A DNA stretch of 45,272 nt from Escherichia phage HannyBb, in sequence record PP925841.1. One strand, given 5' to 3'. Numbering within the stretch: the stretch's first letter is position 1; the number at the start of each line of letters is the position of its first letter. Below the pieces are notes generated by a model, which had not been told where the DNA came from, searched no databases, and was given only the letters and a program-made list of their open reading frames with translations. Below are positions 17,900-21,930 of the stretch, piece after piece. The translations under genes and the position numbers were made by a program.

Positions 17900-20272
17900 A
17901 TGGCAGTACAGATTTCAGGTGTGCTGAAAGATGGTGCGGGAAAACCAATACAGAACTGCACTATTCAACTGAAGGCAAAGCGTAACAGCACCACGGTACT
18001 GGTGAACACGGTGGCCTCTGAAAATCCGGATGAAGCCGGGCGTTACAGCATGGATGTTGAGTATGGCCAGTACAGCGTTATCCTGCTTGTTGAAGGTTTT
18101 CCGCCTTCACATGCCGGAACCATTACCGTCTATGAAGGTTCCAGACCAGGTACGCTGAATGATTTTCTCGGTGCCATGACGGAAGATGATGTCATGCCGG
18201 AGGCATTGCGTCGTTTTGAGGAAATGGTGGAAGAAGCGGCACGCAACGCTGAAGCCGCCTCTCAGAGCGCAGCGGCGGCAAAGAAATCCGAAACTGCAGC
18301 GGCATCATCGAAGAACGCGGCGAAAACCTCAGAAACGAATGCAGCTAACAGCGCACAGGCGGCAGCGGCCTCGCAGACTGCATCGGCAAACTCCGCAACA
18401 GCAGCTAAAAAATCAGAAACCAACGCGAAAAATAGCGAGACAGCCGCAAAGACGAGCGAAACCAACGCAAAGTCCAGCCAGACGGCAGCGAAGACCAGCG
18501 AAACGAATGCTAAAGCCAGTGAAACTGCGGCAAAAAACAGCCAGGTTGCAGCAGCCCAAAGCGAGAGCGCGGCAGCCGGTTCTGCGACTTCAGCAGCTGG
18601 ATCAGCAACTGCTACGGCTAACAGCCAGAAAGCTGCGAAGACGAGTGAAACTAACGCAAAGTCCAGCCAGACGGCAGCGAAGACCAGCGAAACGAATGCC
18701 AAAGCCAGTGAAACTGCGGCGAAAAGCAGTCAGGATGCAGCGGCTCAAAGCGAGAGTGCCGCAGCCAGTTCTGCAAGCGCGGCGGCTGCTTCTGCCACTG
18801 CATCAGCTAACAGTCAAAAAGCAGCAAAAACCAGTGAAACCAACGCAAAGGTGAGCGAAACAGCGGCTGCGAACTCAGCGAAAGCATCGGCAGCAAGCCA
18901 GACGGCAGCTAAAGCAAGCGAAGATGCAGCCAGAGAGTACGCAAGCCAGGCTGCGGAGCCGTATAAATATGTCTTACAGCCGCTGCCTGATGTGTGGATA
19001 CCATTTAACGATTCGCTGGATATGATTACGGGCTTTTCGCCGTCATATAAAAAAATTGTTATTGGTGACGATGAAATAACGATGCCTGGCGACAAGATTG
19101 TTAAGTTTAAACGTGCATCGAAAGCAACCTATATTAACAAATCTGGTGTGCTGACAGAGGCTGCCATTGACGAGCCACGATTTGAACGTGATGGCCTGCT
19201 TATTGAGGGGCAAAGAACAAACTACATGCTCAATTCGGAAAGCCCTGCCAGTTGGGGGCGATCGTCAAATATGGATGTGCCCGAAACAGGGACGGATAAT
19301 TTTGGTTTTACCTATGGAAAGTTTGTCTGCAACGATTCTCTGATTGGGCAAACCTCAGCCATTAATATGGCATCAATTGCTGCAACAAAGTCAGTTGATG
19401 TCTCAGGCGATAATAAACACGTGACAACCTCATGTCGTTTTAAAACAGAACTGCAGGTAAGGTTGCGTATCCGGTTTGATAAATATGACGGTAGCGCAAC
19501 AACTTTTCTTGGTGATGCGTATATTGATACACAAACGCTTGAAATTAATATGACAGGCGGTGCTGCCTCAAGGATTACAGCGAGAGTCAGAAAGGACGAA
19601 GCTACCGGATGGATTTTTGCAGAGGCAACAATTCAGGCAATTGATGGGGAGTTAAAAATAGGCTCTCAGATACAGTATTCTCCTAAGCAGAGCGGGGCAA
19701 CCGTATCTGGTGACTATATTTATCTGGCCACCCCACAAGTAGAAGATGGGCCTTGTGTATCATCTTTTATTATATCAGGAGCGACGGCGGCGACCCGCGC
19801 AAGCGATATAGTTACAGTTCCAATTAAGAATAATCTTTATAATCTTCCTTTTACGGTTCTTTGTGAGGTACATAAGAACTGGTATAAAACGCCAAATGCA
19901 GCGCCACGTGTTTTTGATACCGGCGGTCATCAAACCGGAGCGGCTATTATTCTTGGCTTCGGTCGTTCAACAGATTACGACGGATTTCCTTATTGCGATA
20001 TTGGAGGAGCTAACAGACGGGTAAACGAAAACGCATCGCTTGAAAAAATGGTTATGGGGATGCGTGTAAAGTCAGAGCAGTCTACGTGCTCAGTAAGTAA
20101 CGGGCATATATCCAGCGAAACAAAAACCACATGGTCCTGTATTCAGAACACCGCAATTATCCGTATTGGAGGCCAGACTACAGCCGGGTTACGTCATTTA
20201 TTTGGTCATGTCAGGAATTTCAGAATATGGCACAAGGCATTGACTGATGCTCAGGTGGGGGAGTCAATCTAA
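17900..20272 (+). CDS. stf: Side tail fibre protein (lambda Stf-like N-terminus, Ala/Ser/Thr-rich repeat shaft, divergent C-terminal domain)
   Basis: N-terminus MAVQISGVLKDGAGKPIQNCTIQLKAKRNSTTVLVNTV...GRYSMDVEYGQYSVIL matches recalled lambda Stf; GGAGTAAGT before the ATG. Confidence 0.82.
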   Translation: MAVQISGVLKDGAGKPIQNCTIQLKAKRNSTTVLVNTVASENPDEAGRYSMDVEYGQYSVILLVEGFPPSHAGTITVYEGSRPGTLNDFLGAMTEDDVMPEALRRFEEMVEEAARNAEAASQSAAAAKKSETAAASSKNAAKTSETNAANSAQAAAASQTASANSATAAKKSETNAKNSETAAKTSETNAKSSQTAAKTSETNAKASETAAKNSQVAAAQSESAAAGSATSAAGSATATANSQKAAKTSETNAKSSQTAAKTSETNAKASETAAKSSQDAAAQSESAAASSASAAAASATASANSQKAAKTSETNAKVSETAAANSAKASAASQTAAKASEDAAREYASQAAEPYKYVLQPLPDVWIPFNDSLDMITGFSPSYKKIVIGDDEITMPGDKIVKFKRASKATYINKSGVLTEAAIDEPRFERDGLLIEGQRTNYMLNSESPASWGRSSNMDVPETGTDNFGFTYGKFVCNDSLIGQTSAINMASIAATKSVDVSGDNKHVTTSCRFKTELQVRLRIRFDKYDGSATTFLGDAYIDTQTLEINMTGGAASRITARVRKDEATGWIFAEATIQAIDGELKIGSQIQYSPKQSGATVSGDYIYLATPQVEDGPCVSSFIISGATAATRASDIVTVPIKNNLYNLPFTVLCEVHKNWYKTPNAAPRVFDTGGHQTGAAIILGFGRSTDYDGFPYCDIGGANRRVNENASLEKMVMGMRVKSEQSTCSVSNGHISSETKTTWSCIQNTAIIRIGGQTTAGLRHLFGHVRNFRIWHKALTDAQVGESI
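18413..18850 (+). repeat. Tandem direct repeat (period ~189 bp, ~2.3 copies) inside the side tail fibre gene
   Basis: Near-identical ~68-nt blocks at 18467-18534 and 18656-18723 (GCAAAGTCCAGCCAGACGGCAGCGAAGACCAGCGAAACGAATGC...), encoding repeated AAKTSETNAKSSQTAAKTSETNAKASETAAK units. Confidence 0.8.
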
Positions 20273-20553
20273 TGAAAGATTTAACACTCAAATTTGCCGA
20301 CAGGGCCGACTTTTCGGCCTTTATGGATAGCACTGGCTATTATGATGACGAGTCGATGCAGGATGATATTCTTATTGACGTGATAGGTAACGTGTACAAA
20401 GAAACCGGAGAACTGACTGAAGATGGCGAACCGGTATGTGTTAAGGAAGACGGATATTTTGTAAACGTGCGCATCATTAATGATTCGCAAATATCGTCAT
20501 TATTCGATGAATACGTGGTTGCTGTTGAGCATCAACTTCGTGGCTGGATGTGA
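20272..20553 (+). CDS. Hypothetical acidic protein between the two fibre genes
   Basis: 93-aa ORF whose ATG overlaps the stf stop (TAATG); acidic; it does not resemble a Tfa-type fibre assembly protein as far as I can tell. Confidence 0.4.
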   Translation: MKDLTLKFADRADFSAFMDSTGYYDDESMQDDILIDVIGNVYKETGELTEDGEPVCVKEDGYFVNVRIINDSQISSLFDEYVVAVEHQLRGWM

Positions 20554-20562
20554 GGAAGAAAA

Positions 20563-21594
20563 ATGGCTACATCGACAGTAATTCCTGATGACATCAAAAC
20601 GCTAAAATCCGACGTTAGCAAATTAAAAAACGATCAAGGAAGCTACGCAACAAAATTATATGTAGACAGCAAAGATGAAATCGTTGGTGACTGGTCTGCT
20701 TCATGGTATCAGCAGGTATTGCCAACTAGCGGAGCTATATTTGGGAGAAAACTCCGCTCAACTCACAGGACGGCAGGTGTTGAGGATGCGTATTGCGAAC
20801 TATACCTCAAAAAATGGATAGACAGTCCAGGTAACGCAATGGCGCGCCTTAACCTGAACGATAACGGGACAAACATTTGCTGGGACTTTACCAACCTTTA
20901 TGGCGGTACGATGATTTTTCCCGGTGACAGCGGATACCTCAAAATGGGTAACTGCCTTATGTCATACAGCAAGCGTGGAAGTAACGCGCTTATTAAATTT
21001 GATTACACCGACACATTACAGATCAAATATGCCAATCATGGGTCAACCATGACATTAAACACACAGGGAACCGCTTATGCTGGTGTTACTGCTCAATTGT
21101 GGGGCAACACCAGCCGTCCTGTTGTTTATGAAGTCGGTGTTGATGGTGGCGCTTATATGTTCTATGCGCAGAAAAATACCGATAACACCTATATGTTAAG
21201 CGTTAATGGTGCATGTCATGCCACCGCATTTAACCAGCATTCCGACCGGGATCTGAAAGACAACATTCAGGTGATCGATAATGCAACCGACCGCATCCGT
21301 AAAATGAACGGCTATACATACACGCTTAAAGAAAACGGTATGCCCTATGCTGGTGTCATTGCACAGGAAGCTCTGGAAGCAATCCCAGAAGTTGTAGGTT
21401 CCGCAATGAAATATCAGGACGGTGCAAGCGGATCGGAAGGTGAACGTTATTACACAGTAGATTATTCTGGTGTTACTGGCTTGCTTGTTCAGGTAGCCAG
21501 AGAGTCAGACGACAGAATAACAGCACTGGAAGAAGAAAACGCAGAATTAAGACAAAGATTATCTGCAATTGAGGCGGCGCTTGCGTCTAAATAA
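20563..21594 (+). CDS. Second tail fibre / tailspike-like protein with C-terminal intramolecular chaperone (peptidase S74) domain
   Basis: 343 aa; the C-terminal ~110 aa (SDRDLKDNIQVIDNATDRIRKMNGYTY...YAGVIAQE...LEEENAELRQRL) looks like the auto-cleaving chaperone of endosialidase-type fibres; GAGGAAG Shine-Dalgarno upstream. Confidence 0.7.
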   Translation: MATSTVIPDDIKTLKSDVSKLKNDQGSYATKLYVDSKDEIVGDWSASWYQQVLPTSGAIFGRKLRSTHRTAGVEDAYCELYLKKWIDSPGNAMARLNLNDNGTNICWDFTNLYGGTMIFPGDSGYLKMGNCLMSYSKRGSNALIKFDYTDTLQIKYANHGSTMTLNTQGTAYAGVTAQLWGNTSRPVVYEVGVDGGAYMFYAQKNTDNTYMLSVNGACHATAFNQHSDRDLKDNIQVIDNATDRIRKMNGYTYTLKENGMPYAGVIAQEALEAIPEVVGSAMKYQDGASGSEGERYYTVDYSGVTGLLVQVARESDDRITALEEENAELRQRLSAIEAALASK

Positions 21595-21600
21595 TATTAA

Positions 21601-21623
21601 GGGGCCGAGCGCCCCGTTTTATT
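21601..21623 (+). terminator. Terminator-like hairpin after second fibre gene
   Basis: GGGGC-CGAGC-GCCCC followed by GTTTTATT. Confidence 0.45.
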
Positions 21624-21630
21624 GGGTAGG

Positions 21631-21930
21631 ATGAAAATGGATATAACACCTTTCCTTCATGCGCTTTGTGCTGTGGCTGCGCAGCTACTGATTGGTCTTT
21701 TTACCGGGAACTGGGCTTACGGGGCGATAGCCGGTTGTACGTTCTTCATTGCGCGTGAACACACCCAGGCAGAATATCGCTGGATTGAAATGTTCGGGCA
21801 TGGCAAGCGAATGAATATGCCGTGGTGGGGCGGTTTTGATCCGCGCGCGTGGGATGTGGCAAGCCTGATGGATTTTGCTGTGCCGGTGGTGGCGTGTCTG
21901 CTGGTCTGGCTGTTGGTTAATCGTGGGTGA
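21631..21930 (+). CDS. Small integral membrane protein (moron-like)
   Basis: About 100 aa with two or three hydrophobic segments (LCAVAAQLLIGLFTG..., FAVPVVACLLVWLLV); start may be 21631 or 21637. Confidence 0.45.
   Translation: MKMDITPFLHALCAVAAQLLIGLFTGNWAYGAIAGCTFFIAREHTQAEYRWIEMFGHGKRMNMPWWGGFDPRAWDVASLMDFAVPVVACLLVWLLVNRG

Follow-up and report, generated by a model that had tools for sequence, protein, structure and literature searches.

Phage fibres of the S74 family end in a C-terminal chaperone domain which folds the trimer and then releases itself (Schwarzer 2007; Schulz 2010; Garcia-Doval 2015). Here we examined a fibre gene with such an end in Escherichia phage HannyBb (sequence record PP925841.1; the whole stretch of 45,272 nucleotides (nt) that was analysed is referred to as the window). 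The gene encodes a protein of 343 amino acids (aa) and lies at positions 20563-21594, behind a gene for a 790-aa protein related to the lambda side tail fibre protein Stf and a gene for an acidic 93-aa protein, and in front of a gene for a small membrane protein. Which O-antigen or capsule types a phage gets past depends on its side or lateral fibres. We propose, with a probability of roughly 60%, that positions 17900-21594 form a single low-GC (low guanine plus cytosine), horizontally mobile side-tail-fibre cassette on a lambda-type Stf N-terminus, and that it encodes a two-part fibre.

Fibres made of more than one protein have been described in T5-like phages. In the model for phage IrisVonRoten (Bas32), distal Gp24, which has a T5-like binding domain and an intramolecular chaperone, attaches to proximal Gp22 (Humolli et al. 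2025, PMC11990801). The evidence for this attachment is an AlphaFold-Multimer model; the C-terminus of Gp22 is a protruding galectin-like domain, possibly an additional receptor-binding domain, and the study gives no role to Gp23, the homologue of the 93-aa protein (PMC11990801). Branched lateral fibres made of LtfA and LtfB, at which LtfB depends genetically on LtfA, are known from DT57C and DT571/2 (Golomidova 2016, PMC4728585; Ayala 2023, PMC10713586). In Ur-lambda, a collar of twelve gpStf domains surrounds the gpV/gpM junction, and four side fibres, each a trimer, arise from it (PMC12617516).

The window locus shares its three-gene order with IrisVonRoten: Gp22 shares 52% identity with the window Stf over residues 130-790, a stretch that takes in the lectin/galectin-like C-terminal domain, Gp23 shares 38% with the 93-aa protein, and Gp24 has the same N-terminal motif, here called the plug motif, and the same Peptidase_S74 end. 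On the other hand, the anchor in IrisVonRoten is a T5 Ltf-type N-terminus with LtfC, whereas a lambda Stf collar is found here, and its distal protein has 574 aa and two binding domains, whereas that of the window has 343 aa and one short body, with no detectable similarity between the bodies. IrisVonRoten is also a virulent phage with a 'T-shaped' distal fibre, while the window phage is temperate. The LtfA/LtfB pair is similar in that an anchor-less second fibre rides on the first and adds a second O-antigen specificity. It differs in that the gene table of PMC10713586 has no ~92-aa gene between ltfA (gp108) and ltfB (gp107), and in the N-terminus of DT57C LtfB, which resembles phiEco32 gp15; a search with the plug motif of the window did not retrieve these phages.

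The chaperones of the K1F/endoNF endosialidase, T5 pb1 and S16 gp37 are likewise C-terminal domains with a Ser-x4-Lys pair, but the S74 fibre of the window would have a very short mature part (~226 aa, predicted) and has no anchor. As in Ur-lambda, a collar domain is followed by an Ala-rich coiled-coil shaft. Of tfa a stub is left in the window, and the pinQ-ydfK right end is like that of Qin; unlike in Ur-lambda, the gp37-like distal half of Stf and the intact Tfa are replaced by a lectin-like domain, the 93-aa gene and the S74 fibre. The same Stf domain layout (54% identity) with a 92-aa gene (54%) is found in phages of the phage 21/Perceval/mEp460 type, which have no S74 distal fibre. The cassette adds a lambdoid example to the multi-protein lateral fibres already known, and the biological advance is incremental, as S74 domains and multi-protein lateral fibres are well known and the genes are already annotated as tail fibre genes; the point of interest is the putative joint of the ~92-aa protein and the plug motif.

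The two fibre proteins

The features of the cassette are as follows.

17900..20272, + strand: 790-aa Stf-like protein, proposed proximal segment of a composite side fibre (PF08400; phrog_1419 over its full length)
17900..18181, + strand: collar or tail-attachment domain, aa 1-94, matching Ur-lambda gpStf residues 1-94
18980..20269, + strand: ~430-aa C-terminal lectin-like region (ConA/LamG, 'galectin-like'), with a variable core at ~aa 441-760 and conserved ends
20272..20553, + strand: 93-aa acidic protein (phrog_1361), proposed assembly factor or joint protein for this fibre type
20563..21594, + strand: 343-aa S74-terminated fibre (Pfam, phrog_4563), proposed distal segment
20563..20610, + strand: 16-aa 'plug' motif at the N-terminus, MATSTVIPDDIKTLKS, with the consensus M-[AV]-T-x-T-[VI]-I-P-x-D-I-x-x-L-K
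21067..21240, + strand: fibre shaft/tip segment, aa 169-226, with W180, G181 and R185 invariant; homologous to the trimeric C-terminal region of T4 gp34
21241..21591, + strand: intramolecular chaperone (Peptidase_S74) region, aa 227-343, with the Ser227 codon at 21241-21243 and the Lys232 codon at 21256-21258

These are already deposited and annotated genes of a lambdoid prophage. Positions 17900-22800 are 99.8% identical, over 100% of the query, to Escherichia phage Tritos (OV696610; megablast), which is prophage 3 of the adherent-invasive, Crohn's-associated E. coli LF82 and is annotated in the order J, tail fibre (lambda stf homologue), hypothetical, tail fibre, hypothetical, PinR, regulator and integrase (OV696610). 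The open reading frames (ORFs) at 20272-20553 (93 aa), 20563-21594 (343 aa) and 21622-21930 (the membrane protein) belong, in gene order, to PHROG families 1361, 4563 and 1443. Among 5426 complete E. coli genomes, the 1659-bp region which they occupy is found in 1906, and 527 (about one tenth) carry no less than 80% of it. All three genes are real.

A reading made earlier from the letters of the window alone (the sequence-only reading) had seen an acidic 93-aa ORF followed by a fibre with an S74-type, self-cleaving chaperone end. The acidic ORF is there (20272-20553; isoelectric point 4.05, with 21 D/E against 7 K/R), and Pfam places PF13884 (Peptidase_S74) at residues 227-278 of the 343-aa protein with an E-value of 4.7e-14 (52.8 bits against a cut-off of 22). 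The Ser-Lys dyad was also found. It stands at the start of the domain as a Ser-x4-Lys pair (S227-D-R-D-L-K232), with S227 and K232 conserved in at least 90% of 28 homologues, and the SDRDLK stretch aligns with SDRRIK of the phage S16 gp37 chaperone (PDB 6f45). A C-terminal helix is predicted by AlphaFold2 (AF2) at residues 301-341.

Upstream of the chaperone, the family profile of the 343-aa protein matched the T4 gp34 structures 4uxe, 5nxf, 5nxh and 9x3r in the PDB (E-values of 2e-8 to 1e-7, residues ~169-226), and PHROG profiles place residues 90-339 on the C-terminal ends of tail fibres of 1000-1500 aa. An S74 domain at the C-terminal end (residues 227-343 of 343) of a fibre homologous to trimeric T4 gp34 fits the layout of the S74 fibre family. 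By its sequence, the 343-aa protein is an S74-terminated fibre with a Ser-Lys pair. The outcome that would have refuted the sequence-only reading on this point, neither an S74 match nor a fibre signal, was not obtained. By analogy with the family, it would cleave itself before Ser227 and would need no separate chaperone for its own folding. The gene has a GAGGA Shine-Dalgarno sequence 6 nt upstream of its start, which lies 9 nt after the stop of the 93-aa gene.

The copy in the window has 343 aa and not the usual 346 aa, owing to a 9-bp in-frame deletion at 21430-21450 (aa ~290-296), where GS-EGERYY stands against GSEGEEGERYY in Tritos and most relatives. The deletion lies inside the chaperone region that would be released and is probably neutral.

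The Stf-like protein begins with a phage_tail_N domain (PF08400, residues 1-131, E=1.8e-67; Pfam), and its N-terminus matches residues 1-94 of Ur-lambda gpStf in PDB 9e7m with E=1.7e-49. Its C-terminal ~430 aa (~360-790) are 38-64% identical to the fibres of phage 21, ESCO3, JenP2, KarlJaspers, IrisVonRoten and JeffSchatz. NCBIfam GTA_spike_fiber matches residues 434-634 (E=3.3e-13), Laminin_G_3 matches are weak in the window protein and stronger in its homologues, and the conserved C-terminal end, IRIGGQT..G.RHLFGH.RNFRIWHK.LTD, can be read as the last strands that close a jelly roll of the LamG type. The GC content is 44% in the C-terminal region against 54% in the N-terminal part of this protein. 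A domain scan of the Stf-like fibre detected no S74 domain.

Within the shaft of the Stf-like protein, window 18416-18850 holds a tandem 189-bp (63-aa) duplication and 42-bp sub-repeats, which encode an Ala/Ser/Thr-rich coiled coil with heptad-like KTSETNAK... repeats and probably set the length of the fibre.

The sequence-only reading took the S74 domain to make an assembly chaperone unnecessary and saw no recognisable tfa gene. The first claim would hold for the 343-aa protein itself, going by its family, and does not extend to the Stf-like fibre. Since the latter has no S74 domain, the absence of tfa is not explained by the 343-aa gene. As to the second, no intact Tfa (Caudo_TAP) gene is found downstream of the fibre gene, but a 39-codon stub of tfa is, at 21941-22057.

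Proposed docking of the distal fibre

Pfam found no phage_tail_N or collar domain in the 343-aa protein, so that in this locus only the 790-aa protein has a tail anchor. What the 343-aa protein has at its N-terminus is the plug motif, in or just after which AF2 predicts a helix (residues 9-28). The order of a fibre with the same ~430-aa C-terminal domain, a ~92-aa gene with stop/start overlap and an S74 protein with plug motif recurs in ESCO3 and JenP2 (Nonagvirus), KarlJaspers (Drexlerviridae) and IrisVonRoten (T5-like). Plug motif and Peptidase_S74 are both present in JenP2 gp25 (348 aa), IrisVonRoten Gp24 (574 aa), KarlJaspers gp35 (221 aa) and ESCO3 gp80; the distal bodies, of 221-574 aa, show no detectable similarity outside close relatives. 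In all 13 phages which are present in both tblastn tables, the plug motif begins 9-20 nt after the ~92-aa gene.

We also compared 80 related prophage loci from IMG/VR, which were chosen by similarity to the 93-aa protein. Where enough downstream sequence was available, nearly all carry a distal allele of 346 aa (38/80) or of 234 aa (23/80), at which the first ~25 residues are common and the remainder is divergent. The second type of allele (227-241 aa; loci L022, L042, L047 and others) has a coiled coil, a divergent chaperone-like C-terminus and an SSIRYK... motif.

Because the 343-aa protein has no anchor of its own, its plug motif is conserved and the three-gene synteny extends across phage families, it is probably the distal segment of the fibre. 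The proximal segment would be the 790-aa protein, which would trimerise and be anchored to the tail via its collar, and whose lectin-like C-terminal domain could, by homology, bind a glycan. The 343-aa protein would form a short trimeric fibre, folded by its S74 chaperone, which would then cut before Ser227 by means of Ser227 and Lys232 and leave a mature fibre of ~226 aa. The 16-residue N-terminal peptide would dock on the distal end of the Stf-like fibre, and the result would be a two-segment or branched fibre with two receptor-binding regions. Comparative genomics and the published model of the T5-like homologue both point to such a docking. The 93-aa protein could act as an assembly factor for the fibre, as a bound joint that receives the distal fibre, or as both. 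The sequence-only reading had two distinct fibre types at this point; without a collar domain in the 343-aa protein, and with a plug motif and synteny which point to docking on the Stf-like fibre, this part of it is not upheld. The dual receptor specificity it suggested is still plausible, as two binding domains on one composite fibre.

Several points weigh against this reading. The presence of the 343-aa protein in the virion, and its contact with Stf or the 93-aa protein, are predictions. Its AF2 monomer model is only moderate (a pLDDT, or predicted score in the local distance difference test, of 63), and a Foldseek search of this model against the PDB gave no match at E<=0.001 (4uxe reached a probability of 0.97); this is expected since it is a monomer model of an intertwined trimer, and the sequence profile was used instead. 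A tblastn query with the plug region (44 residues) retrieved neither DT57C LtfB nor phiEco32 gp15, which are experimentally supported branched fibres. The conservation of the block formed by the C-terminal end of Stf, the 93-aa gene and the distal N-terminus is partly circular, as the loci were chosen on the 93-aa protein; it could also reflect recombination linkage, and the conserved end of Stf is at the same time the usual closing strand motif of LamG-type domains. As for the 93-aa protein, it also occurs without a distal fibre, which makes a pure adaptor role unlikely, and it has no similarity to Tfa, so that a chaperone role is as putative as an adaptor role.

Transcription of the three genes was assessed in published RNA-seq tables of LF82 (tables S1 and S4 of PMC9928086), which give ten samples as log2(fpkm+5), with fpkm for fragments per kilobase per million and a floor of 2.32. 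The values in lysogeny broth (LB) and in macrophages are:

Stf (TRITO_19): 2.4-2.7 in LB, 5.0-5.5 in macrophages
93-aa gene (TRITO_20): 2.3-2.8 in LB, 7.0-8.3 in macrophages
S74 fibre gene (TRITO_21): 2.5-2.9 in LB, 6.4-7.05 in macrophages

TRITO_19-21 (window 17900-21594) are thus induced ~6- to 60-fold in macrophages and rise together. J reaches only 3.3-3.7 there, and the remaining structural genes listed for Tritos lie on the floor or close to it (2.3-4.2). The same uncoupling of fibre or spike genes from structural genes is seen in Perceval (stf, 92-aa gene and membrane gene) and in Gally (tailspike and a homologue of the membrane gene); it is not discussed in the LF82 paper (PMC9928086). 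The pattern implies that the fibre region is transcribed independently of the late operon, from a promoter upstream of stf or inside it. A consensus scan gave weak candidate promoters at 19106-19135 and 19524-19551. Antisense read-through from pinQ/ydfK was also considered as the source of the signal and is unlikely, as the membrane gene in between is at the floor.

The GC content is 42-45% in the C-terminal region of Stf and in the 93-aa and 343-aa genes, against 54-56% in J, the N-terminal part of Stf and the membrane gene. The low-GC block at 18980-21600 is ~94% identical at the nucleotide level to the virulent Nonagvirus vB_EcoS_ESCO3, which indicates, as far as sequence can tell, that the complete fibre module was recently exchanged between temperate and virulent phages. 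A virulent Nonagvirus and the temperate lambdoid prophage of a Crohn's-associated strain share the cassette in nearly the same form.

The 93-aa protein

The stop codon of Stf and the start codon of the 93-aa gene overlap by one shared base (TAATG at 20270-20274), with a GGGGGAG Shine-Dalgarno-like run on the 5' side, and the arrangement reads as translational coupling of the 93-aa gene to Stf. The protein has no Pfam or NCBIfam family even at E<=10, Caudo_TAP included; its PHROG matches are families of unknown function only, and a sequence search of the PDB gave no match. Its AF2 model (pLDDT 85, predicted template modelling score 0.71) is a confident small alpha/beta fold with the order beta-alpha-alpha-beta-beta-alpha, and its structural neighbours are weak.

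The family is small, with 83 clusters at 50% identity in a profile search among 1.8 billion representatives. Its members are found in lambdoid, Drexlerviridae, Dhillonvirus, Nonagvirus, T5-like and rV5-like phages, where the gene nearly always abuts a tail fibre gene. A fusion of the domain to fibre proteins was looked for; the clusters are nearly all stand-alone, and the few long matches (PKD/TPR repeats) look spurious.

In phage 21, Perceval and JeffSchatz, the ~92-aa gene follows a lectin-tipped fibre, and all three are without a plug-bearing S74 gene; therefore it serves the lectin-tipped fibre. The reverse, a plug-bearing S74 gene without a ~92-aa gene, was never found in the tblastn tables. 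Taken together with its position, the 93-aa protein is probably a fibre-type-specific accessory which stands in for Tfa; it may help the fibre to assemble, remain on it as a joint or cap, or do both.

A narrower explanation gives the 93-aa protein a purely non-structural part, as a Tfa-analogue chaperone for the lectin-like domain of Stf which is not in virions, at which the distal fibre docks directly on Stf. We regard this as possible, at odds of well below even. It agrees with the tfa position, small size, acidity and translational coupling of the gene, with its presence behind this fibre type whether or not there is a distal fibre, and with the IrisVonRoten model, where Gp24 is on Gp22 and Gp23 has no part. 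It agrees less with the lack of similarity to Caudo_TAP or any other chaperone family, and with the observation that plug-bearing distal genes always come with this gene. Nor would a tip-specific chaperone be expected to keep at least 94% identity while the Stf binding domain falls to 40%, as is the case in the 80 related loci (chosen, as said above, on the 93-aa protein itself).

The reading in which the 93-aa protein has a part in joining the two fibre segments has a wider form. The ~92-aa joint and the plug of 15-16 residues may be a portable plug-and-socket for interchangeable distal fibres in lambdoid, T1-, T5-, 9g- and possibly rV5-like phages, with the cassette having its own transcription, apart from the late operon, in lysogens within macrophages. 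We put this forward tentatively, and would sooner doubt it than rely on it. If it is true that a 16-residue peptide and a 92-aa protein make the joint, they would offer a compact and well-delimited means of exchanging the distal receptor-binding fibres when phages are engineered.

Downstream boundary, membrane gene and locus history

The following features lie around the cassette.

17860..17879, + strand: terminator-like hairpin with an 8-bp stem and a T-run, just 3' of gene J and upstream of the fibre cassette
21601..21615, no strand assigned: GC hairpin GGGGC-CGAGC-GCCCC followed by GTTTTATT, -10.1 kcal/mol; likely terminator and boundary of the low-GC cassette
21637..21930, + strand: 97-aa small membrane protein (phrog_1443), a separate module with a GC content of 54%
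21941..22060, + strand: 3' remnant of a lambda-type tfa, 39 codons and a stop, between the membrane gene and the invertase gene
22158..22748, - strand: PinQ/PinR-like serine DNA invertase (Resolvase and HTH_7; annotated pinQ), apparently orphan

The hairpin at 21601-21615 would end the cassette transcript. In the published RNA-seq data, expression falls from fpkm ~127 (TRITO_21) to ~6 (TRITO_22), a drop of at least 20-fold across the hairpin (PMC9928086 tables), which supports its assignment as a terminator. The small membrane protein which the sequence-only reading had placed after a terminator is confirmed, with its start corrected. The best start is ATG 21637 (97 aa), which has an AGGA Shine-Dalgarno sequence 5 nt upstream and agrees with Tritos and phage 21, and not TTG 21622. 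The 97-aa protein has two hydrophobic helices, at residues ~3-24 and ~74-95, and no family in Pfam or NCBIfam. It is 96% identical to the 'putative membrane protein' of phage 21, at which the gene lies 12 nt after the 92-aa gene with no hairpin in between.

Homologues of the membrane gene lie next to int and behind the tailspike genes in the P22-like Gally and 611R6. Halomonas phiHAP-1 has one behind a tfa-like gene, and in a lytic coliphage a fragment follows the endosialidase gene. The gene looks like a separate module which tends to end receptor-binding gene clusters; here it would be a different, higher-GC module of a kind common at the ends of late operons. Any role of its product in adsorption or exclusion is speculation.

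The sequence-only reading had called this gene a moron, a label that belongs with another explanation, in which the 343-aa protein makes up a second, independent type of fibre with its own mount on the tail, so that the phage would have two unrelated fibre sets and a membrane moron expressed in the lysogen. In its favour, the 343-aa protein is a genuine S74 fibre with its own Shine-Dalgarno sequence, and the membrane gene, behind its hairpin, has a GC content of 54.4%, which differs from the 42-45% of the fibre cassette and is similar to the lambda-like backbone; the homologue in Gally is induced in culture medium and in macrophages. We nevertheless find it unlikely. Lambda-type side fibres attach through the gpStf collar, and the 343-aa protein has no collar or other attachment domain, while its N-terminal peptide is conserved only alongside a 92-aa gene and a LamG-type fibre. 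Regarding the moron, a consensus scan, which weak or alternative promoters could escape, found neither a sigma-70-like site at 21283-21637 nor a terminator behind 21930. The membrane gene belongs to an operon in phage 21 and Perceval, where it lies 12 nt behind the 92-aa gene; the copy in Perceval is without the hairpin, and RNA-seq shows it expressed together with the 92-aa gene of that phage. The Tritos copy is at the floor in all ten LF82 samples (TRITO_22, 2.8-3.8 log2(fpkm+5) against 2.32; raw counts of 1-17) and does not appear in the moron list of the LF82 paper (PMC9928086). The reads of that study were filtered at a mapping quality (MAPQ) of at least 30, and LF82 has a 96%-identical paralogue of the gene. 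A mapping artefact is unlikely to be the sole cause of the silence, as 12 of 294 nt distinguish the Tritos copy from that of Perceval, and the latter was detected. The Tritos membrane gene is not expressed under the sampled conditions, and there is no sign of a separately expressed moron.

In the podovirus vB_EcoP-611R6, which is P22-like, a 37-aa 'tail fiber protein' ORF (L009, 3345-3458) is 96% identical to residues 290-343 of the 343-aa protein, the last part of its S74 domain, and has an O-acetylase gene on one side and the membrane-gene homologue on the other. From this stranded fragment it follows that the hairpin and the membrane gene travel with the 3' end of the S74 gene.

Such a fragment can also be read as a sign that the 343-aa ORF has no function and is a mosaic relic: the C-terminal part of a long fibre, cut loose by recombination, that is not in particles. 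PHROG profiles do align it to the C-terminal ends of fibres of 1200-1567 aa, and truncated or frameshifted distal copies (90, 189 and 194 aa) are present in some prophages. A relic is nonetheless very improbable: full-length alleles dominate the related loci (346 aa in 38/80, 234 aa in 23/80), the catalytic pair is conserved, the gene is transcribed together with Stf and the 93-aa gene, and four phage lineages, including strictly virulent phages, which keep no dead genes, have preserved the N-terminus and the Shine-Dalgarno sequence.

The stub at 21941-22057 matches Caudo_TAP positions 95-130/131 (E=6.4e-15) and is present in many related prophages. In RefSeq it is the partial tail fibre assembly pseudogene LF82_RS07940; pinQ and ydfK come next, an order also seen at the Qin right end. 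Judged by these remnants, what the cassette replaced was evidently the distal part of an Stf/Tfa locus, and the stub and the orphan invertase would be relics of that locus. An invertase which switches fibre ends, as Gin (Mu), Cin (P1) and Pin (e14) do, with the 93-aa and 343-aa genes as one orientation, is hardly credible in spite of the PinQ/PinR-type gene 230 bp downstream beside the tfa stub, as the fibre genes have no flanking inverted repeats with the size of a crossover site, no gix/hix-like core lies near them (a single match in the window, at 43735, is at chance level) and the orientation is the same in 80 of the 80 related loci. The situation of the orphan invertase resembles that in the Qin and Rac prophages.

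In virulent phages, a glycine-rich protein of ~235 aa (MSDMTL(I/L)P.GGLGGGFGGEAGAA...) follows the fibre module in place of the membrane gene; it is encoded at 6795-7505 of ESCO3 (L003), 5117-5818 of L004 and 5488-6201 of L006. Further downstream in the window, 23065-23331 on the - strand is a small ydfK-like gene with a GC content of 33%, the 'DNA-binding transcriptional regulator' of Tritos. The LF82 paper lists this regulator among the genes that the lysogen expresses, and its induction in macrophages is strong, with values of up to 10.6 log2(fpkm+5) (PMC9928086).

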